Assembly (NCBI GenBank): GCA_964016885.1
Contig: OZ024742.1
Coordinates: 79,236,001 to 79,300,000, forward strand
DNA length: 64,000 bases
Direction: 5' to 3'
DNA from: Eledone cirrhosa
Lineage: Eukaryota
Below, in pieces: positions 4,733 to 55,235 of the stretch (positions are counted from its first letter, which is position 1; each line of letters starts with the position of its first letter). Both the position numbers and the translations under genes were made by a program. The notes under the pieces are model-generated. The model was not told the origin of the DNA, did not search any database, and was given only the letters and a program-made list of their open reading frames with translations.

Positions 4733-4877
4733 CATTGATCTGTAAAGATCATTCTTGCTAGTATATTATGAAACAATTTATACATCTCATATGTATTTTG
4801 TCTGAAAAAGCATATTCTGATTTATGTTAAACGTAAATTTTTGCATCCTCGAAATATATATAATGAAATAAATAGTG

Positions 4878-5630
4878 AAGAAATCCTTGGCCTGGCAGTG
4901 CTACCGAGGAGCTTTGCTAGTTCGGGATAAACTTTGCAGGCATGGAGGTGCCGTCAGCCGGGCATGTCCGAGATGCGCGCAGAGCGACGAAACCGTCCTG
5001 CACGCACTCGTCCAGTGTCTGAGCATTGCTGACTTGTGGGTTTATGTCGAACACCTTCTGTCACGTGTGGGACGGATCCAGCTATCAGCTGAGTCCATCG
5101 TGAGGATTGCCCCGCTCTCTTCCTTTAGTCGGGAAGAGCAGGCAGTTTTTATCTGTCTGGTGGCCATGGCGAAAGAGATGGTATGGTGGACACGTTTGAA
5201 AGGGCTGAAGACGAACACTTACCTCTTCGGTGATGCCCTGATTAACTTTTTCAAATTTCATTTGGAAAGGAAAATCAGGGTACAGAGGGAAGTGCTCTTT
5301 TCCCAGCATTTTGTTGAAAGATGGGTGAGAGAAGCAAGTATGGCCCGAGTGAATGGGCCTACTCTGAGTATGTGCCTGTAAATTAAAGGTAGAAAACTGG
5401 GAGAGGGCACTTGCCCTGGTGGTCAGGGTCACTGTGGCCTTTTAATGGGCTTTCTCCACAGATGTCCCTCGGAAGTCTCCCCCCTATTGGGGAATTTTTG
5501 ATTGTTATTTTTTTTATTGCATCCTCTGTTTTTGTTTACACGCAGAAATGCCCATTTGTACTGTCCTGTATTGTCCTGTACTGTCTTTAATGTCTACTTT
5601 ATGTAAACCCTTGTGGTTAATAAAGAAAGC
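4878..5630 (+). mobile_element. L1/Tx1-type LINE 3' fragment (post-RT zinc-binding domain plus 3' UTR)
   Basis: KSLAWQCYRGAL..CPRCAQSDETVLHALVQC (CCHC) aligns with the C-terminus of 11841-13076; ends in AATAAAGAAA. Confidence 0.85.
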
Positions 5631-5661
5631 ATTATTATTATTATTATTATTGTTATTGTTA

Positions 5662-6538
<877 letters not shown>

Positions 6539-6911
6539 CACGTTCATATTCACACACTAACACAGAACACTCAAATTTTAGAGAGTAGTTCAGTTGCCCG
6601 TTACAAAATGCTTCAATTCTGATATATTGCTAATAGTCGATGAAAGTAAGTTTGCTACTCTTTGTGTGATTGTATTATCAAGATGTTCTTCCCGTTTGTT
6701 TATAAGTCTCTCGGGTAAAAATTGACTTTTGTAACAAACCTGACAAGTAATGACGTTTTGTGTTTAAGACTTAGGGATATAGCGTATTGTTCGACTATAT
6801 TTACATGTATGTAGGCTGGTTAATGTCTGGTAATCTTCTTCAACACCTACTCATTATACAAGCAGCTATGATGTGAATGTGTGAATGTGTGTGTGTGTGT
6901 GTGTGCGTGTG

Positions 6912-6945
<34 letters not shown>

Positions 6946-8095
6946 AGTGTGTGTGTATTCGTATGTGTAGTGACGTGATATCGTATTTTATCTGTGCGGC
7001 TCGTTTTCTTAATGTCGTAAGTTCGATTCTCTTTGGGGAGTTTATTCTTTGAGCAAGACCCATTATTTCACTTTGCTCTAGTCCACCCAGCTAGAAAAAA
7101 CAAAAACAAAAAAACAAATATGTCTAGAGAGACGTTTAATCACTCAGTACAACGACAAGAAGCTTATATCCTTTTTTTGCATATGAAACATAAGCTGGAG
7201 ATGCTCATTTGCATACAGTGAAAATAAAAAAATCTATTGGAGATATGCAAAGATGCACATAAGCTATAAACTATAATCTATAAGCTTATTCTTGTCTCAG
7301 TACCATTAGTACATACCACTGATGACGGATAACAATACTGAAACACATGTCTCTTATTCCCATGGGACAGGACCACTAGTTAAAGTATTCATAATGCGAC
7401 AATATTCATATTCCGTCATATACACCCCTGTTATTTTCTTTATGTAAAAGCATATATGAATACATATGCATATATATACTGTTATATAGGATACCTCTCT
7501 CACATTGCCTACATTTCTTCACTCAATCTTAAAACACTTTCTACTTGTCATATATATATATATATGTATTTATATATATATATATATATAAATTTAGCGA
7601 GAATCGCATTTCGGCGGGTAGAAATTGGCGAAACGCAACTTCTGTATTGTGCAGACAAGCGCTCCATGGATATGCAGATACCAGAGCTATAAACAGAAAT
7701 GGTCATACAAACTGAGATGATGGTTAAGAAGCCATTAACCACCTTAGCCAAAAAAGCGAACAAGCTAAACAGGTCAAACAAAATAAGATATGATTGAAAT
7801 AGTTACTCCGACCCTCGAGGAAGATTGAATACTCTGATATTTGGGTTTCCACAACACCTAAATCAATAATACTGTCTGCTTATAAAAAATAAGCTTTTGG
7901 TATAATGATCGAACAAGGCATCGCTTTCTCAACAGGCATTTTGCTCTTCGCGCGCCAGAATCTCACAGGTTATGAAAGCACATGTGAGGTTCTAAGGGGA
8001 GGAAACCCCTATTTTGGCCAGTGAATTCAGCATGTGTAGTTATTGCAATCATTTGCAAAAACAGCACAAAACGAATTTAGCTCTCGACCGAGTTG

Positions 8096-8134
<39 letters not shown>

Positions 8135-8139
<5 letters not shown>

Positions 8140-8569
8140 ATTCAATGGAAAGCTATCACTAAGTCCAAGCCATACGTAAGGGGAAATCCAACGTGTGGCT
8201 TATGTATTGACGAACGAATAACTATCCTAAAGAGATTGCCTAAACACGAGAAGTGAATTTTCACACGTTGTCCACACGTCACCAAACATCTATTACATAA
8301 CTACAAGGCTCTGGAATGATTCTTTGTAATTTTATTTTTTTATTTTTTTATTTTATTTTCAACCCAAAAACTTTCCGGACTTTCGCAGTTATCTCCCTTA
8401 TATCCCCCGCACACAGTCTGCTATTGCCTGTGCGAAGTGACCGAGTTTCTGCGCATGCGCGTTCGTACGGTTGTCCTTCCTGTTCCTATAATTATATACA
8501 TCCCGAGCTGAAGATCCGCGAAGGTGAAACAATTGTTCTCGGTATGGTGAACTAACTATTGTGTAACCA

Positions 8570-8572
<3 letters not shown>
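8135..8572 (+). mobile_element. Penelope-like element 3' remnant (end of GIY-YIG region plus 3' UTR/pLTR with hammerhead)
   Basis: IQWKAITKSKPY..TCGLCIDERITI resembles a PLE endonuclease C-terminus; hammerhead at 8503-8542; flanked by (TA)n. Confidence 0.7.
8503..8542 (+). ncRNA. Minimal type I hammerhead ribozyme
   Basis: CCGAG CTGAAGA TCC GCGAA GGT GAAA CAATTG TT CTCGG; palindromic helix III. Confidence 0.85.
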
Positions 8573-8620
<48 letters not shown>

Positions 8621-8628
<8 letters not shown>

Positions 8629-9164
8629 AAGGTTTAGTAAATAATGAAAAAGTTTCAAAATAAATTTTAAAAAATTGACTTTCCCCACTATAGTTACCTT
8701 TACCGATCGGTTTCGAATCCCAAAAATAAAACGGAGACCATACGGCCTTCGTTGCAAAGAAAGATTCTCGTCAGAAGGTTCTTTTCATTCAAAGAATATA
8801 AAATTCCTGAATTTAAATCACAAACTAGCGCTATCAAAAACTGTTCCTGGGATGAGAGTGGATGATGTAGAACAGGTTTATCAAGGGCCGTAGCAAAGAT
8901 AGAGGCAAAAGGAGGTAGGTCAAACTAGCCACAGCTATTACTAGCAGCAGTCGGAATGACCAAGTTTGTTCTCAACGTTAGTGGAGGTAGTAGTAATATG
9001 AAATACGTTCCTTCACGCACAAGGCGCCAAGGTACGCATGTATTGTCCAACCAAATGCCAGTGTGGTTCAATGGCGGGTTAATAAATTAACGAGCCAGAA
9101 CAAATATAAACAAGGTTTAGTAAATAATGAAAAAGTTTCAAAATAAATTTTAAAAAATTGACTT

Positions 9165-9165
<1 letters not shown>
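8621..9165 (-). mobile_element. ORF-less hammerhead-bearing unit with identical 62 bp terminal direct repeats (retrozyme-like or PLE pLTR)
   Basis: 8621-8682 is identical to 9104-9165 (period 483 bp); embedded in (TA)n on both sides. Confidence 0.75.
8696..8779 (-). ncRNA. Canonical-core type I hammerhead ribozyme
   Basis: Minus: ACCTT CTGACGA GAATC..GATTC GAAA CCGATCGG TA AAGGT; G10.1-C11.1 pair and GUA cleavage triplet. Confidence 0.9.
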
Positions 9166-9221
<56 letters not shown>

Positions 9222-9259
9222 TAGAAAAGGAAAGTAAGGTTCTATACAAAACAGTGGAT

Positions 9260-9721
9260 ATAGAGAAAAGGTGAAGTTGGAAAATACAGGGAAAATATAT
9301 TTAAGGCTCTGTTTTTTTTTTTTTCTTTTTTGATTCGTCAAACTGACATTATTGAAAAGATAAGGATTTAAAATTAAAATTAAATGGTGGAGTAAGTTTT
9401 CTTCCATGATTCTTGTTCAAAATTTGGTAAAAACTTACTCCAACATTTGATTTTAATTTTAAATCCTTAAGTTTTAGTTTTTAACTCCTATTAATTCTTT
9501 TTAATTTTTTATTTCGATACTCAACATTTGATAAGAGGAATTTTAACAATACATCGATACCGGTAATTCTTTATATACTTTATATACATCATAAAACTTT
9601 TTTTAAAAAGAATTGTTCCTCTCATTTTTTCAATAATGTTATCTTTTCAATAATGTCACTTTGACGAATCAAAAAAGAAAAACAGAGCCTTAAATATATT
9701 TTCGGTGCTATTTCCAACTCC

Positions 9722-9730
<9 letters not shown>
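9260..9730. repeat. Imperfect ~100 bp inverted repeat (fold-back)
   Basis: GAAAATATATTTAAGGCTCTG..TGATTCGTCAAACTGACATTATTGAAAAGATAA versus its reverse complement at 9639-9730. Confidence 0.75.
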
Positions 9731-9799
<69 letters not shown>

Positions 9800-11250: not shown

Positions 11251-11525
11251 TATATTAATAAAAGGAATTCCAACTTTGTCTGATTTACTCGTTTTATTTA
11301 CAACAGTTGAACATTGCAAACTTGACTGTCACCACACATTATGAACCTGAAGATTGCGAAAGCATGAAAGTACTTGTTCAATTAACACATAACATTTAAT
11401 ATTCTACCATACTATTTCATTCTAATACCATTATAAATTTTAAAGGATAAAACGAGTAAATCAGACAAAGTTGGAATTCCTTTTATTAATATAATCTTCT
11501 ATACACAATCATACACACCCGTGTA

Positions 11526-11589: not shown

Positions 11590-13340
11590 CGACAAGGCTG
11601 CCCTCTCTCCTCCCTTCTGTATGTAATGACTCTAGAGCCACTGCTGCGGAAGTTGGAGTTGTTGCAGGGCATCCCGTTGGAACCGGGATTGCGGAAAGCG
11701 GTGTCGGCCTACGCCGACGACGTAACAATAATGGTGTCGACGGCCTCGGAAATCGGAGCGATCGGCACCTTACTGGAGGAGTACGAAAGGTTTACAGGGG
11801 CTAAGCTGAACCGGGACAAGTCGATCGTCTGCAACTCGGCATGTGGAGGGGCAGATCGATGCCCTCCGATGGCGTCGTCCGGCGCTGGACGGAGGGCCCG
11901 GTGAAGTTGCTCGGGGTCTGGTTCAGACCAGACCTCCAGGTGGAGAAGAACTGGGGTGAGGTAACGAACAGGGTGTTTGCACTGAGCCAGAAGTGGGCCG
12001 AGTGCAAACTGTCCCTGAAGGGTCGGGCGGAGGTGGCGAACACTTATATAGCGTCCGTCATCTACTACCGCCTAACCGTTGTGCCTTGCCCAAGGGAAAC
12101 GCTCGCCAAAATGGAGCGCGCACTCTTCCAATTCCTTTGGAAGAAGCGAGCTCCTATGGTGAGGAGATCCATCTGCTGTCAACACCCTTCGAAAGGAGGA
12201 CTGGGGATGCCGTGGCTAATGATACGTAAACACGCATTAAGGCTACGGCACCTCCAGGTATTCCTCACCGGTCAACCGGTGTGGGCCCCGTTTGTGAGGC
12301 GAGCCTTTCCCAGACTCGTCTCACTCACCGAGCTGCAATCCTGGGTCAAGCAAAGACTGAGAAAACTGGGCGCCTGGCACACTAAGTGTGCCGAGGCGCT
12401 CACGGCTCTCTGGCAGGCGGACCCGGCGATCAGTGGAGAATCCACCTCGTCATTCTATAGAGGGCTGGTGGTTAGCAGGTGCGACGACGCCCTCAGAGAA
12501 GCCCTAGGCATGGAGGAAGACGAACTGAACAACCTGTTCGGTAGGACATTCAGCCCAGGACCCATGAATAACTTCCAGAGGTCCCTGGCCTGGCAGTGCT
12601 ACCGAGGGGCTCTGCCCGTTAGAGAAAGGCTCTACACTAGGGACCCCTCGAAAAAGATCTGTCCCAGATGCGTGTGCGACGAGGAAACCGTTGCACACGC
12701 ATTGGTACACCGCTCGGGCATTGCCGATCTGTGGGGCTATGTCGAACAACTGCTGTCAAGGGTGGGACCGATCCGGTTGACCACCGAGTCTATTGTAACG
12801 ATCAAGCCGCCTCCCCTCTTCAAAAACGAAGGAGAGGCGGTGTTTCTGTGCGTAATAGCCATGGCGAAAGAGGTTGTATGGTGGACGCCTCTGAAAGGAC
12901 TGAGGCCAGACACCTTTCTCTCTGGCCAACAACTGGTCCGTTTCTTCCGATATCATTTCGGAAGAAGGATCAGGATGGAGAGAGAGGTGCTGCACCCCAG
13001 CCGTTTTTATGAAAGATGGGTGAAAGTAGCGAGAATGGCCCGTGTGAATGGGCCTTCACTCTACATCAGACTATAGGTGAGGAAGATGAAAGATCAAGGG
13101 AGCACCCCCTCTCTGTGCTCCTGAGGAGAAGGGTTGCACACTTTTTTTCGGGGGTGTGTGCGACACCCCAAGGCGCCTCCTCCCTATTGAGGATTTTGTT
13201 ATAAATTTATTTTGTTATATTTTATTTTATTTTTATATTTTATTATTGCCTCCTCCTTATTGAGGACGCCTTGTTATGTAAACTCCCCTCCATTGTACTT
13301 GTCCCACTTTTTGATGCCCTGGTGGCAAATAAAAAGAAAA
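11588..13340 (+). mobile_element. L1/Tx1-type LINE, 5'-truncated (RT C-half plus zinc-binding domain), frameshift near 11830
   Basis: IRQGCPLS and SAYADD RT motifs, then 411 aa ORF with KLLGVWF, GGLGMP, CPRCVCDEETVAH; A-rich tail; flanked by (CTAT)n. Confidence 0.92.
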
Positions 13341-28160: not shown

Positions 28161-28727
28161 ATGGAAAAAATGAAACGAAATTTCATTTCTCACTCTTAGT
28201 ACGGCTGTTACGTAAATCCATACGTACATATATATATGTGTGCATGTATGTATATATATATACATACTCCTGTACGTCTGTATACATATATATATGTACG
28301 TGTACATACTTATATTTAAGTAACAGCCGTACTAAGAGTGAGAAATGAAATTTCGTTTCATTTTTTCCATTTATCGTTTTCGGTGCGCCCGGCCGATTAA
28401 CTCACTCGATATGCAAATTAGGCTGCTCAGCCGTTAATATGCATAAGGAAAGTATATACTTTCAGACGTTCAATCATCTGGCAGGAAGGTATACGGTGCT
28501 GACGATAGCTAATAAGCTTGAAACTAGTACATCGTTCCTTTGTCAGTGTTGAACAAATAGGCAACGATGGTTGCTAGACACTGTACGGCTTAATCCGGGA
28601 TGTTTGTTTACAAACAAACCGAGCATTATAATAAATGTTCGGTAAATCCATACGTACACATGTATATGTGTGCATGTATGTATATATATACATACTACTG
28701 TACGTCTGTATACATATATGTATGTAC

Positions 28728-28945: not shown

Positions 28946-29430
28946 TATAAAGCTGACGGCCGTAAGTAGGTAACAAACTCTCCGCCAAACGGCTAAGATC
29001 TGAGAACCATCAATGGCCATGGATGTTCCACTTACCGTTTGGCTTGTCAGCTGCGTGGTATGTTACACGATGACAGCAATTGGCACCTCACCCTGCAAGA
29101 AGCAGCAACTGCTAAAGTCCCTTCTCAGCTGCGAGAACTTTTTACTATTATGCTGCACAACTGCGATCTCGCCGACCCCCTCCCACTGTGGAACAACCAC
29201 CGTGAAAGTCTAGCTAAGGACATCCTCGACCGCACACGCAGACACAATCCAAACGTAACATACGATGTCGTTTTCAATGAGGCGCTCATTTGTCTTGAAA
29301 ACAGTGTCTTGGAGATTGGTGGTAGGCCTCTATGTCACTACAGCTTACCTGCTCCTGACAGGAGTGTCCAGAGGTCAACTTCTACAGAGCTTCTCCGCGA
29401 GACGAGTTACGAAATCAGTGATTCTCTCAT
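28940..29430 (+). mobile_element. Helitron fragment (Rep-helicase linker region)
   Basis: [22 protein letters not shown]....PSQLRELF..ML..C....PL.LW is typical of Helitron Rep/Hel proteins. Confidence 0.8.
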
Positions 29431-29660
29431 GGTCAATTGTATGTAGGATGCTCTAGGGCAAAGGTTATCAACCCATTTTGGCTGCTATAATAAGAAAATC
29501 TAAGAAACGACAAGAAAACATTCACTAGATGGTAATATCGCCCTTCATTTAAATACATCAAATTTATTCTCTTTAATTCATCCCAACAAACATATAATAA
29601 TCTCTTTCAGAAGTTGGGAAAACGCAGAGATGTACGTTTTTTCATTATTAACACTCTCCA

Positions 29661-39229: not shown

Positions 39230-40500
39230 ATATCGATTCCCTTGTACAGACAGTTCGTACATTCAGTACAGACATAGGAATGGAATTTGACATAAAAATG
39301 TGTGGGGTGCTACTAATGAAGTGAGGTAGAAGTAATAAGATGTTAGGAATTGAATTGCCAGATGGACAGGTTACGTAGGAAATTGATGACAACGGATATA
39401 AGTACTTAGGCATCCTGGAAACATACGAAATGAAAGAGAAGGAAATTAAAGATGTATTATCAAAGGAATATACGTGGAGTCTGAAGATGCCGTTAAAGAC
39501 GAAGTTAAGTGGAAGGAATAAGATACTGGCTATCAACACATGGGGTGTTGCAGTGGTAAGTTGGTGTGATAGAGTGGAGATGTGATGAACTTAAGGAGCT
39601 TGATAGAAAGACCAGGAAAATGATGACACTACAAAGGGTTCTACACCCCAAAAGTGACGTGGACAGGTATCTATCCCGACAGAGAGGAGGAACATGTCTC
39701 ATTAGTTGTGAAATGTGTGTGAAATCAGAGAAAAATAATCTGGCATGGTATATAAAGAATTCAAGGGAGAGATTGATAGCAGGAGTAAGAAAGATAAAAG
39801 TCCTAAACAGTTGTGAATCAAAGGAAAAGGGAGAATTTAAACAAGACAGGCAGAATAACATATTGAATTGTAAAAAAGAATGTATGGTCAATTCGTACAG
39901 GAAATGACAGTTGATCAAGATAGGAATTGGGAATGGTCAAGGAAAAGTGACTTAATAGTTGAAACTGAGGCCCTTATTTTTGCAGCCCAGGAACAGGCAC
40001 TAAGAACGATCTATATCAAATTCAATATGTACAAGTCAGTGAATAGGCTGTGTGGTGAGAAAGGTGAGACAATAAACGACATTATTAGTGAATGTAAGAT
40101 GCTTTCTCAGAAAGAGTACAAGAGAAGGCACGACAACATTGCCAGATTGGTTCACTGGAAGCTCTGTCATAAGTATGAAATGAACAGAATTGAGAAATGG
40201 TATGAACACCAATCGGAAAGGGTGCCTGATAATGAACAGTATAAGATCCTATCTAGTGCGACCATTTTATCGTGGCTAGAAAGCCTGACATTATTGAAGT
40301 AGAAAATACAAATAACAAGGCATGTATTGTGGATATTGCTTCACCGTGGGACCACAGGTTGAATGAAAAGAAAAATGAAAAAGTTGAGAAATATCAGGAG
40401 CTGAAGAAAGAAACCAGGAAACTGGAGAATAAGACGCATAGAAGTGGTACCGATTGTAGTTAGCGCACTGGGAACAGTTAGATGTTGGATGCATGGCTTA
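39230..40500 (+). pseudogene. R4/Dong-like LINE, degenerate (RT end, CCHC, RLE)
   Basis: SLVQTVRTFSTDIGMEF, YKYLGILE, LDRKTRK..LHPKSDVDR, AAQEQAL, LCGEKGETINDIISEC, RHD, RKPDII..IVDIASP; many frameshifts. Confidence 0.88.
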
Positions 40501-43632: not shown

Positions 43633-44253
43633 TATATATTGGTAAACGGAATAGAAAATGCTGACAAATTGTTCACAGTTGATAAATGGTTTAATTAGGA
43701 ATAAAAGAGTATTAGTGATTGTATGGGTTAGTATTCAGTTGTGGTTTTAAGTTTTTAAGTTTTTACCGGTTGCGCATTTCTAAATGCTTTTCAAAAATAA
43801 TTTTGAGATAGAGTGTCCGTGCTGTTTGCTCTGATCTGATTAGTTTTGGGAATTCTACCTGTTTTTATGTTAAAAAAGTGGCTCCAGCGTTATTTTTGTG
43901 TTGCAAAAATTCTTGTGGTCAAAACAATTTTGATTGGTCGGTAGAGGTCATGTGAATGTAAAGAGTTGATTTTGCGCCAAGACTGTTTTTATGTTAAAAA
44001 AGTGGCTCCAGCAAAAATTCTTGGTCAAAACAATTTTGATTGGTCGGTAGAGGTCATGTGAATAAAACATTGGTTTTGCGCCAAGATTGAGAAATGACTC
44101 TTTCACAACAAATATATGTGTGTGTGTGTGTATGTGTGTGTGTGTGTGTGTAGTAGTAGTAAGGTGTTCGATGCTGCGACAATGGCCAGCAGCGATGTGT
44201 GTCAAATGGCTATTAAGATAAGTGTGTGTGTGCGTGTGTGTGTGTGTGCGCGC

Positions 44254-44314
<61 letters not shown>

Positions 44315-44395
44315 GCAGAGTGATTCGTGGTGGTAGGGATGGTCAGTAAGAATGTGTCTGAAAGCAATGGGGGGTATTTTAGCATGTCAAAAGAT

Positions 44396-44478
<83 letters not shown>

Positions 44479-45615
44479 GCAGAGTAATTTGTGGTGGCAG
44501 GGATGGTCAGTAAGAATGTGTCTGAAAGCAATGGGGGGTATTTTAGCATGTCAAAAGATATTTTTCAGCTTCCTCGGCATCCTCATTAAGATCCATAACA
44601 AAAAAATAGAAACAGACATATACTACAAGCCCACAGACTCCAAGCAATATCTCCCCTTCAACTCTTGCCACCCTAGACACGTTAACATTAATATTCCCTA
44701 CAACTTAGCCAAGAGAATCTGTACTATAGTCTCCAATAAAAACATCTGCTACTTACGGCTACAAGAACTAAAGGACACACTCATAGGCAGGGACTACCCT
44801 GCATCACTAATTGACAATGGAATCCAACGTGCCCTAAAACTCAGTACCCAGGACCTTAGACACCCTAAAGTAAATCAACCAAAACTAAAAGCTCTTCCAT
44901 ACATCTCCACACACAACCCCCTCAACAATGAGGCCTTTGACACCATCCTCCAGAACATCCCTGTATTGAAAAAGGACCATAGAATGAACCAAATTCTACG
45001 AACACACGATATCATAAAGAGCAAAAGACAATCCAAGTCAATGAAAAACATCTTAACACATGCCAAAGTACTGCCAACCACAACAACGAAACCCACAGTA
45101 AAAAAATGCGATAGACCCAACTGTGGCATTTGCATCAACCTAATAGAGGGTTCAGAATTCTATTTCAAAGATGGACAACGTTTTATTGTAGAACACAATT
45201 TCACATGTGCATCGGAAAATCTAATATATGTATTAACTTGTTCAGGTTGTCGAGAAAAATACATAGGCCAGACCAAAAACAGCCTCCGCCAACGCATGAC
45301 TGTCCATAGATCCCAAATTAAAATACGGGAATACAGAAAAATACCACTGAGTGAACACATTGATACCTGTGCCGCCCAAAATCATCCCAACTTCAGAATC
45401 TTTCCCCTCTACAAATTTAAAGATAATGCCACCCACACTCAGCGCACCAGCAAGGAATCTTACTTCATTAACAAATACGGACCCCGTCTAAACACTTCTC
45501 CCTAAGACGAAACCACAACATACACACGTCAACATACATACCTACATCAGCACACATCTCTACCCACATATAAACACAATGACACACGTAATATATGTGC
45601 ATATATATGTATGTA

Positions 45616-45660
<45 letters not shown>

Positions 45661-45812
45661 AATATATGTATGTGTATATATATATATAGTGAATATCATT
45701 TCACACCTTTTATTGTTAAGATTTTTGATGTTCTATTAAGAGAACCGATTTTACTGAAAAAATCGAATAATGTACACCATTTTACCAGGGGGAAAAAATA
45801 CTGGTCCACCCA

Positions 45813-45894
<82 letters not shown>

Positions 45895-46305
45895 CACAAA
45901 CACATACACACGCGTACATCAACATACAAAGAGACTTATATACACACACACACACGCACTTCACCGTATAAGACAAAAGCTGAAAAATATCTTTTGACAT
46001 GCTAAAATACCCCCCATTGCTTTCAGACACATTCTTACTGACCATCCCTGCCACCACAAATTACTCTGCTACACACACACACACACACACGCACACACAC
46101 ACACACACACACACTTATCTTTTGACATGCTAAAATACCCCCCATTGCTTTCAGACACATTCTTACTGACCATCCCTACCACCACGAATCACTCTGCTAT
46201 ACACACACACACACTTATCTTAATAGCCATTTGACACACATCGCTGCTGGCCATTGTCGCAGCATCGAACACCTTACTACTACTACTACTACACACACAC
46301 ACACA

Positions 46306-46348
<43 letters not shown>

Positions 46349-46856
46349 TTGTTGTGAAAGAGTCATTTCTCAATCTTGGCGCAAAACCAATTTTTTATTC
46401 ACATGACCTCTACCGACCAATCAAAATTGTTTTGACCAAGAATTTTTGCTGGAGCCACTTTTTTAACATAAAAACAGTCTTGGCGCAAAATCAACTCTTT
46501 ACATCCACATGACCTCTACCGACCAATCAAAATTGTTTTGACCACAAGAATTTTTGCAACACAAAAATAACGCTGGAGCCACTTTTTTAACATAAAAACA
46601 GGTAGAATTCCCAAAACTAATCAGATCAGAGCAAACAGCACGGACACTCTATCTCAAAATTATTTTTGAAAAGCATTTAGAAATGCCCAACCGGTAAAAA
46701 CTTAAAAACTTAAAACCACAACTGAATACTAACCCATACAATCACCAATACTCTTTTATTCCTAATTAAACCATTTTTCAACTGTGAACAATTTGTCAGC
46801 ATTTTCTATTCCGTTTACCAATATATAATAACTTGTGTGTTACAGCTCTATTCTTT

Positions 46857-46862
<6 letters not shown>
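43633..46862 (+). mobile_element. 5'-truncated Penelope-like element with long inverted copy of its 3' region
   Basis: 43633-44571 is the reverse complement of 45977-46827; ORF lies between; ~35 nt extra tail to 46862; (TA)n on both flanks. Confidence 0.88.
44570..45505 (+). CDS. PLE polyprotein C-terminus: RT thumb, Cys linker, GIY-YIG endonuclease (5'-truncated; the ORF-track start at 44489 lies in the inverted repeat)
   Basis: TDIYYKPTDSKQYL..SCHP.H, CDRPNCGIC, NLIYVLTCSGCREKYIGQTKNSLRQRMTVHR, EH, R..KES.FI...P.LN; uninterrupted to TAA. Confidence 0.92.
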   Translation, partial: FLGILIKIHNKKIETDIYYKPTDSKQYLPFNSCHPRHVNINIPYNLAKRICTIVSNKNICYLRLQELKDTLIGRDYPASLIDNGIQRALKLSTQDLRHPKVNQPKLKALPYISTHNPLNNEAFDTILQNIPVLKKDHRMNQILRTHDIIKSKRQSKSMKNILTHAKVLPTTTTKPTVKKCDRPNCGICINLIEGSEFYFKDGQRFIVEHNFTCASENLIYVLTCSGCREKYIGQTKNSLRQRMTVHRSQIKIREYRKIPLSEHIDTCAAQNHPNFRIFPLYKFKDNATHTQRTSKESYFINKYGPRLNTSP

Positions 46863-51268: not shown

Positions 51269-51689
51269 AAATGTGGAGAACTTAATATTGCTAACAAAAA
51301 TTTATTGGACCGTTTTACACAACCAATAATACACATTACTACATACATACATACACACACACACACACATATATATACATATATATATATATACACATAA
51401 CAAAGGTGGACCATAACGCACCAGATTACTCAATACTTAGGGTAGCAGAGTGGGTAATAGGAAAAGAGTTAGGACCCCGACGACTTAGCTCCGGCCGTTT
51501 CGACAGCTAGATCCGACAGCTAGATCTCAGCCGTCGGGATCCTGACTCTGAGGTTTTACAAAGCGAAACTGATCAGTAAGGGCCACTAGAAGAGGTAAAT
51601 ATTTATATTATATTTTTTAATGTATTTTGAAAAATTGATTGAATTTTACTTGTTCTGCTTATCTTAATATATATATATATATATATATA

Positions 51690-53488: not shown

Positions 53489-55235
53489 GTAGTGGTGGTG
53501 GTAGTGGGAGTGGCCTGCTGGTTGTGAGTGTGTGTGTGTGGAGGTGGTAGCGGGAGTGACCTGCTGGTTGTGAGTGTGTGTGTGTGGAGGTGGTAGCGGG
53601 AGTGACCTGCTGGTTGTGAGTGTGTGTGTGTGTGGAGGTGGTAGTGGGAGTGGCCTGCTGGTTGTGAGTGTGTGTGTGTGGAGGTGGTAGCGGGAGTGGC
53701 CTGCTGGTTGTGAGTATGTGTGTGTGGAGGTGGTAGCGGGAGTGACCTGCTGGTTGTGAGTGTGTGTGTGTGGAGGTGGTAGCGGGAGTGGCCTGCTGGT
53801 TGTGAGTATGTGTGTGTGGAGGTGGTAGCGGGAGTGACCTGCTGGTTGTGAGTGTGTGTGTGTGGAGGTGGTAGCGGGAGTGACCTGCTGGTTGTGAGTG
53901 TGTGTGTGTGGAGGTGGTAGCGGGAGTGACCTGCTGGTTGTGAGTATGTGTGGAGGTGGTAGCGGGAGTGACCTGCTGGTTGTGAGTATGTGTGTGTGGA
54001 GGTGGTAGCGGGAGTGACCTGCTGGTTGTGAGTATGTGTGGAGGTGGTAGCGGGAGTGACCTGCTGGTTGTGAGTGTGTGTGTGTGGAGGTGGTAGCGGG
54101 AGTGACCTGCTGGTTGTGAGTGTGTGTGTGTGGAGGTGGTAGCGGGAGTGACCTGCTGGTTGTGAGTATGTTTGGAGGTGGTAGCGGGAGTGACCTGCTG
54201 GTTGTGAGTGTGTGTGTGTGGAGGTGGTAGCGGGAGTGACCTGCTGGTTGTGAGTATGTGTGTGTGGAGGTGGTAGCGGGAGTGACCTGCTGGTTGTGAG
54301 TGTGTGTGTGTGGAGGTGGTAGCGGGGGTGACCTGCTGGTTGTGAGTATGTGTGTGTGGAGGTGGTAGCGGGAGTGGCCTGCTGGTTGTGAGTGTGTGTG
54401 TGTGGAGGTGGTAGCGGGAGTGACCTGCTGGTTGTGAGTGTGTGTGTGTGGAGGTGGTAGCGGGAGTGGCCTGCTGGTTGTGAGTGTGTGTGTGTGGAGG
54501 TGGTAGCGGGAGTGACCTGCTGGTTGTGAGTGTGTGTGTGTGGAGGTGGTAGCGGGAGTGACCTGCTGGTTGTGAGTGTGTGTGTGTGGAGGTGGTAGCG
54601 GGAGTGGCCTGCTGGTTGTGAGTGTGTGTGTGTGGAGGTGGTAGCGGGAGTGACCTGCTGGTTGTGAGTATGTGTGTGTGGAGGTGGTAGCGGGAGTGGC
54701 CTGCTGGTTGTGAGTGTGTGTGTGTGGAGGTGGTAGCGGGAGTGGCCTGCTGGTTGTGAGTGTGTGTGTGTGGAGGTGGTAGCGGGAGTGACCTGCTGGT
54801 TGTGAGTGTGTGTGTGTGAGGGTGGTAGTGGGAGTGACTTTCTGGTTGTGAGTGTGTGTGTGTGTGGGTGGTAGTGGGAGTGGCTTTCTGGTTGTGAGTG
54901 TGTGTGTGTAGGTGGTAGCGGGAGTGGCCTGCTGGTTGTGAATGTGTGTGGAGGTGGTAGTGGGAGTGATCTGGTTGTGAGTGTGTGTGTGTGGGGGTGG
55001 TAGTGGGAGTGGCTTTCTGGTTGTGAGTGTGTGTGTGTAGGTGGTAGAGGGAGTGACCTTCCGGTTGTGAATGTGTGTGGAGGTGGTAGTGGGAGTGATC
55101 TGGTTGTGAGTGTGTGTGTGTGGGGGTGGTAGTGGGAGTGACCTTCTGGTTGTGAGTGTGTGTGGAGGTGGTAGTGGGAGTGATCTTGTTGTGAGTGTGT
55201 GTGTGTGGAGGTGGTAGTGGGAGTGATCTTGTTGT
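53489..55235. repeat. G-rich minisatellite, ~37-43 bp unit, roughly 40+ copies
   Basis: Unit GGAGGTGGTAGCGGGAGTG(A/G)CCTGCTGGTTGTGAG(TG)n. Confidence 0.95.

Follow-up and report, generated by a model that had tools for sequence, protein, structure and literature searches.

A non-coding 483-nt hammerhead repeat in Eledone cirrhosa, likely mobilised by Penelope-type machinery from a probably circular RNA

Circles are the abundant RNA form of the retrozymes of coral, mussel and axolotl (PMC7229834), and no conserved motif points to the partner that moves such elements (PMC7761336). Among Penelope-like elements (PLEs), the protein of the PAc element, a predicted dimer, cuts both target strands in vitro and extends them from two internal start sites; reverse transcription of PAc begins downstream of the hammerhead ribozyme, at two internal positions whose spacing corresponds to the genomic ‘tail’ (PMC11167929). 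The complex tandem and inverted structures of PLEs have been left unexplained (PMC8557442). We analyzed a 64,000-nt stretch of the Eledone cirrhosa genome (contig OZ024742.1, positions 79,236,001 to 79,300,000; hereafter the window), which belongs to contig C3 of a genome of 3.0 Gb and has an animal-like content of microsatellites and retroelements. The window contains, at 8621-9167, a hammerhead-bearing insertion.

This insertion is a copy, with a single arm, of a non-coding 483-nt hammerhead repeat present in high copy number; we consider it likely that the repeat is mobilised by the reverse transcriptase (RT) and GIY-YIG endonuclease of a PLE acting on a probably circular RNA. Unit coordinates (u) refer to the plus strand with u1 at 8621, and the predicted ribozyme cut lies between u81 and u80. 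The locus has the following features:

8572..8625, no strand: (TA)n target run on the start side of the insertion, directly 3' of a separate Penelope-like fragment (8138-8571)
8621..9167, plus: whole insertion, a single arm of ~1.13 units in cDNA sense, with a site A start and a variable end
8621..9103, minus: 483-nt non-coding repeat unit (u1 = 8621); the hammerhead (RNA) strand is the minus strand
8621..8626, plus: start site A, with ATATA microhomology to the TA target; 45 of 85 arms begin here
8696..8779, minus: type I hammerhead motif (helix II extended, helix III palindromic), predicted to be cut between 8701 and 8700
8991..8999, plus (site at about 8996): start site B (u371-376), with TA/AT microhomology, internal in the window copy; 30 of 85 arms begin here
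8996..9103, plus: ~108-nt stretch separating the start sites, counterpart of the optional PLE ‘tail’
9073..9096, minus: hairpin lying in the RNA shortly downstream of site A and retained across families
9104..9167, plus: partial second lap (the former ‘terminal redundancy’), closing at the variable end
9168..9221, no strand: (TA)n run on the variable-end side

A genome search with the unit returned 1801 candidates, of which the 40 that were scored are ~97-100% identical over full-length matches. The exact hammerhead 26-mer has 966 genome matches (0 for a control), a degenerate 27-mer of the tail hairpin has 2044 exact matches genome-wide, and a (TA)n run followed by the unit start A has 1428. 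The unit occurs as dispersed insertions and as head-to-tail arrays with a period of 482-485 and up to 10 units per arm. Related families were found at 69-80% and 56% identity, all with a closed period of 474-488 nt; a 112-nt piece of the most distant of them (~56% identical, period 485) lies in the window at 51547-51658 on the minus strand. The family is young, numerous and without coding sequence, and the element is a non-LTR (long terminal repeat) retrozyme, an expected kind of repeat. The preliminary description had read the locus as a candidate retrozyme and proposed a genome-wide look for tandem arrays and circularly permuted copies. The dispersed insertions, the arrays and a seamless crossing of the ribozyme cut support this reading, whereas permutation is not free but restricted to two fixed start sites, neither of them the GUA cut.

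At the locus itself, the exact 62-bp match between 8621-8682 and 9104-9165, its period of 483, the (TA)n runs on both sides and the lack of a recognisable open reading frame (ORF) were all found as previously described; the longest ATG-initiated ORF on the doubled unit encodes 44 aa. The exact match extends no further. Since position 8683 is privately changed in the first copy (A in all covering contigs from two runs), the second copy tracks the family sequence 2 nt beyond it, to 9167. The first five nucleotides of the insertion, ATATA, are indistinguishable from the (TA)n target. The window copy is a single A arm of ~547 nt, and the 62-bp repeat marks the stopping point of copying and does not have the status of a terminal repeat. 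No fixed terminal repeat was found in the insertions at 58 loci (primer-binding site and polypurine tract were not searched by motif). The unit has a GC content of 38.5%. An RNA polymerase III origin was also considered and rejected: four T runs of at least 5 nt on the ribozyme strand speak against a full-length transcript of this polymerase, and no tRNA gene was found.

The start points of the arms were read at 58 loci of contig C1 selected by the hammerhead 26-mer (most of our locus samples are the first listed places on this contig). Among 85 arms, 45 start at site A (u1), 30 at site B (u371-376) and 10 elsewhere. A (TA)n run adjoins 71 of the 75 A or B starts, against a background of 3.8%, and both sites open with ATAT or TA, matching the target. 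Read as cDNA, the arms start 80 nt (A) and ~188 nt (B) downstream of the ribozyme cut, and their non-start ends are scattered across the entire unit. The idea that B arms halt exactly at site A was rejected, as only 2 of the 7 checked do so and the others go 10-18 nt further. The retrozyme carries the insertion signature of PLEs, namely 3' ends with and without a tail, head-to-head inversions, 5' truncation and a microsatellite target, and the same signature was seen in two PLE families of this genome.

Many insertions consist of two arms joined head-to-head, with both starts in (TA)n, and these almost always combine one A arm with one B arm. A script applied to 150 loci reported 67 two-arm junctions: 54 A/B, 11 with one unassignable end, one A/A and one B/B. 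The last two were re-read as A/B, an arm having been split by an internal deletion or a later insertion. Because these locus samples could be biased, a second count was made on 90 loci selected solely by an A start. Their 92 matched arms comprised 57 without a partner, 31 with a B partner, 2 with an A partner and 2 that were unscorable; on reading, one A/A case and one unmatched anchor proved to be A/B, while one A/A case (L252) was genuine. The final count for this set is a B partner in 33 of 34 scorable insertions (p 4e-9 against 1:1). In the union of both sets, with 11 overlaps by coordinates removed, 78 of 79 scorable two-arm insertions are A/B. Seven two-arm copies of the most distant family, which stand outside this tally, read A/B as well. 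In the literature we found no earlier count of such pairing in retrozymes or PLEs, only the qualitative remark that a tail is often at one end (most subscription papers and the supplements lay outside this search). Uncounted opposed pairs in other hammerhead-bearing families (L132, L136, L160 and L165) likewise join a short end to an extended one, which suggests that the rule holds across the genome.

Among 31 retrozyme arm pairs there are 10 in which neither arm is contained in the other, and 3 pairs have no common sequence at all; we therefore infer that each arm was primed separately on an RNA-sense template. This bears on a model proposed for rotifer PLEs (PMC3846280), fold-back self-priming on an antisense template, which would here be combined with the formation of arrays by satellite-like unequal crossover. 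Near-palindromic junctions of the kind it predicts do exist (L095, 198/198; L075, 434/425), but fold-back needs one arm inside the other, and the non-overlapping pairs contradict it as a general route. It also leaves the strict A/B pairing unexplained, and the dispersed insertions have their fixed starts in (TA)n. We regard this explanation as highly improbable.

That the retrozyme is moved by PLE-type priming is, in our judgement, very probable. In the proposed mechanism, read-through transcripts of arrays would self-cleave to monomers, which would then be ligated into circles. The RT/GIY-YIG endonuclease of a PLE would cut (TA)n and prime cDNA synthesis at the two fixed internal sites, with a dimeric complex of two active sites holding one RNA at sites A and B. 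Each target strand would prime one arm, strand displacement would let the arms travel round the circle, and the two cDNA ends would be joined head-to-head; where only one strand was productive, a single arm would result, as in the window copy. The arrays look as if they were born at insertion. As a broader proposal, held with slightly less than even confidence, a dimeric Penelope-type RT may hold a single circular ribozyme RNA by two fixed sites while copying it simultaneously from both strands of a cut (TA)n, with one site for each strand, and this rule may be the general origin of the PLE tail and of inverted repeats.

The autonomous PLEs of the same genome follow the same rule. The ORF at 44480-45505 of the window is part of a young family in which many frames of 784 residues, with RT and GIY-YIG domains, are intact. 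This family was sampled in 50 locus records, 20 of them hand-picked for intact frames or opposed pairs. Its copies end in (TA)n, with 30 short ends, 29 ends with a ~38-nt tail and 5 continuing in tandems, and a short end is paired with a tailed one in 19 of 19 scorable two-arm copies, the window copy included. The latter is a two-arm insertion at 43637-46860 with a short left end and a tailed right end; it has a long 3' region with (CA)n runs, and a scan of its ends found no hammerhead. The CxxxxxCxxC linker motif, described for Neptune/Nematis (PMC8557442), suggests that the family is of this type, the assignment being by linker and not by tree. The second family, which ends beside the retrozyme (8138-8571), has a ~65-nt tail, and 3 of its 3 two-arm pairs combine a short end with a tailed one. 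The fragment at 8138-8571 (plus strand) is the 3' end of a 5'-truncated PLE, with a GIY-YIG C-terminus containing an internal stop and a short end in (TA)n; the retrozyme sits within this flanking (TA)n. The fragment carries a minimal type I hammerhead at 8503-8542 and has 2889 candidates genome-wide. Two further type I hammerhead motifs, of other repeat families, recurring at other loci, were seen at 11342-11380 and 28493-28535 (both plus strand) and are likely the ends of other PLEs or retrozymes.

The target, tail and inversion pattern that the retrozyme has in common with these PLEs would also fit the alternative raised in the preliminary description, that the locus is a solo or partial-tandem pseudo-LTR (pLTR) left by a 5'-truncated autonomous PLE. 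Many vertebrate retrozymes are pLTR-like (bioRxiv 10.64898/2026.07.22.740005), which makes a past pLTR origin plausible. We probed 290 retrozyme locus records by tblastn with five PLE frames (from the two PLE families plus one stray RT frame). PLE protein matches lie nearby in 53 of the 290 records, as expected because the target is shared, but only 2 were flagged with a same-sense PLE ORF less than 600 nt away and no intervening (TA)n. Neither is a pLTR on reading: in L318 a different element intervenes, while L237 is a lone composite joined in the middle of an ORF. The 290 records contained no pLTR arrangement and no unit running into a Penelope ORF in the manner of a pLTR. Moreover, arms longer than one unit always re-enter the unit. 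The pLTR explanation is largely refuted for the sampled copies, and we give it very little credence at this locus. The composite itself (L237:1630-3590) is a two-arm Penelope-like insertion whose second arm runs straight into 1.2 retrozyme units; possible explanations are a switch of template between the RNAs of retrozyme and PLE and a later insertion accompanied by a deletion. The genome is rich in further hammerhead-bearing PLE ends. Overall, the insertions suggest that the partner belongs to the class of Penelope-type machinery, a class named here by mechanism and not by homology.

The form of the template was addressed by reading the arms across the ribozyme cut. It was reached by 78 A arms, of which 74 continue past it, and 171 segments cross it with 1 gap and zero insertions at u76-85; cut linear monomers combined with template jumps are therefore not the main route. 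Near the cut, 15 of the 107 arm ends within ~50 nt fall into a 7-nt window at the cut where 7 would be expected, an excess for which this interval was set post hoc and a neighbouring bin is equally high; it may reflect occasional cleaved templates. The seamless crossing is compatible both with a ligated circle and with an uncut multimer. In the latter case, the same two-site Penelope-type priming would act on the linear read-through of arrays, the hammerhead being slow or serving another step and a circle being unneeded. Arrays of up to 10 units could be sources of such RNA, PAc used unprocessed RNA in vitro (PMC11167929), and 8 of 9 Xenopus retrozyme dimers remained uncleaved in vitro (bioRxiv 10.64898/2026.07.22.740005). 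However, internal priming and truncation can only shorten a linear lineage, yet the divergent families all keep a closed 474-488-nt period. The hammerhead is also the most conserved portion of the unit, and no rare variant is confined to position-matched units of the two arms, although the power of this comparison is low. A linear template appears rather unlikely. Because of the closed period, the conserved ribozyme in all families and the abundance of circles elsewhere, we favour, with fair confidence, a circular over an uncut linear template.

Whether the two arms copy the same molecule is a separate matter. Divergence is 0.58% between units of one arm, 0.82% between opposite arms and 5.0% between loci, which indicates that both arms of a locus derive from one variant, and a single template molecule is suggested. 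A nearest-neighbour test for one molecule failed to discriminate. The strict A/B pairing is a better argument for coupling, because two independent complexes would give about half like pairs. One RNA gripped by a complex with two active sites is the simplest reading, the alternative being an asymmetric complex with two RNAs; we lean slightly towards a single RNA that is bound at both.

On the minus strand, 8779-8696 has the topology of a type I hammerhead: a 5-bp helix I, CUGACGA, a 7-bp helix II with a long extension, GAAA and a palindromic helix III, with the predicted cut after GUA, between 8701 and 8700. Inherited variants occupy 3 of 84 columns in u76-159 as compared with 65 of 399 elsewhere (81 loci; Fisher p 0.0015). 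At the same loci the 12 core positions have only private changes, in 0-3 loci each, and the core is invariant across subfamilies. The relatives are 56-90% identical to the unit, and their hammerhead helices covary. In 24 diverse copies, which remained of 31 non-redundant motifs when 4 unrelated and 3 truncated ones were discarded, 86.9% of the cells are paired and 12 of 24 pairs have two-sided changes, the covariation being found in helices I and II. The covariation score beats 500 of 500 shuffles and every slid control, a kind of test that relatedness inflates; the alignment (A1) has a one-column offset in one inner helix of some rows and was not hand-tuned. These patterns argue that the ribozyme of the repeat unit is under constraint. 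Searches with Rfam gave nothing in the window at the gathering score and left the hammerhead models unmatched in 8000-9300 at E<=10. Given this miss and a minimum free energy (MFE) fold other than the active one, the label ‘canonical’ given to the motif in the preliminary description rests on its topology, core conservation and covariation.

Two further signals were seen in the unit. The hairpin at 9073-9096 (minus strand) may be a candidate protein-binding signal. A GT(A/G)AGT motif resembling a splice donor lies 12-13 nt past the cut; it is conserved across families (A1 columns 107-113) and mutated in the window copy at 8680-8692 (minus strand). It may be a relic intron donor of a PLE, or it may pair with the U-rich loop of helix II.

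Several observations weigh against the proposed mechanism. The MFE fold of the isolated 101-nt motif differs from the active hammerhead fold (z -0.78), and forcing the active fold costs 3.9 kcal/mol in the window unit and 11.6 kcal/mol in that of a second family. The circularised unit is 59% paired at -104.6 kcal/mol (z -1.3 against 60 shuffles), that is, without extra folding. Because of these results we only infer that the hammerhead is active in the repeat unit. Regarding the single template, divergence within a locus (median 0.9%) is no lower than that to the nearest other locus (0.8%), being lower in 20 of 48 cases, and 6 rare variants (4 loci) occur in both arms as compared with 64 private ones (~0.4% sharing is expected by chance). 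L252 remains the one true A/A insertion. Comparison of the unit by blastn with 70 PLE locus records of the two families found no similarity, and no RNA run is listed as containing the unit, the runs listed being 4 of unknown kind from one study. Finally, PAc needed no ribozyme cleavage in vitro, where unprocessed RNA was used and the two strands were alike in start site (PMC11167929).

Among the other repeats of the window are a MITE-like element (miniature inverted-repeat transposable element) at 9257-9737, which has internal hairpins and inverted arms of 67 nt that are 85% complementary, and a 46-bp minisatellite of 38.5 copies at 53492-55226. Fragments at 4872-6543, 11709-13076, 28997-29446 and 39874-40302 are presumably related to Tx1/L1-type and RTE-type LINEs (long interspersed nuclear elements) and to a Helitron, judging by their motifs. 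A weak zf-RVT match at 11805-13076 is the sole domain match for these LINE- and Helitron-like fragments.

Compared with known PLEs, the retrozyme arms share with PAc the geometry of two starts downstream of a hammerhead (PMC11167929). They differ from PAc and Poseidon in having no ORF, a closed period and a tail of ~108 nt instead of 30-40 nt (PMC11167929, PMC8557442, PMC3846280), and in that both starts have microhomology with the target. Tail/no-tail pairing is near-strict here, whereas the bulk product of PAc showed no start difference between strands (PMC11167929).

The repeat resembles the metazoan non-LTR retrozymes of coral, mussel and axolotl (Cervera and de la Pena 2020, PMC7229834) in being a short non-coding type I hammerhead repeat with GC below 50%, tandem arrays, a weak palindromic helix III and co-existence with PLEs. 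Its unit of 474-488 nt exceeds their 170-400-nt RNAs and has a long helix II extension; it is slightly above the range of the first description (150-450 bp) and within that of a 2026 survey (51-972 bp). Their circles are ‘highly self-paired’, whereas the present unit, folded as a predicted circle, is no more paired than shuffles. Fixed internal starts, (TA)n targeting and two-arm inversions go unmentioned for metazoan retrozymes in the parts of PMC7229834 considered. The vertebrate retrozymes (Li, Clavereau, Pollet 2026, bioRxiv 10.64898/2026.07.22.740005) are alike in their proposed PLE machinery and dispersed monomers. Their size range is 51-972 bp, a pLTR origin was proposed for them, the link to PLEs was made by co-occurrence and pLTR similarity, and local satellite-like expansion was favoured. 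In the present family the search gave no pLTR homologue, the insertion signature provides the link, and the arrays look insertion-born.

The findings bear on two questions: by what machinery animal retrozymes are moved, and how the tails and inverted repeats of PLEs arise. Since this young and numerous family lacks coding sequence, its insertions record the points at which reverse transcription started and stopped, and the near-strict A/B pairing, common to intact PLEs of the same genome, yields a sharp prediction for an in vitro PLE assay. If true, the one-of-each rule would show directly, from genomic data, that animal retrozymes undergo rolling-circle target-primed reverse transcription, and two-site twin priming on one RNA is suggested as the origin of Penelope ‘tails’ and inversions. 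In L1 twin priming, too, one RNA is primed by both target strands and the products are joined in inverted orientation, but the second primer lands randomly and the two pieces do not overlap. In the retrozyme, by contrast, the two starts are fixed and the template stretches copied by most arms overlap, so that strand displacement or two RNAs would be needed.
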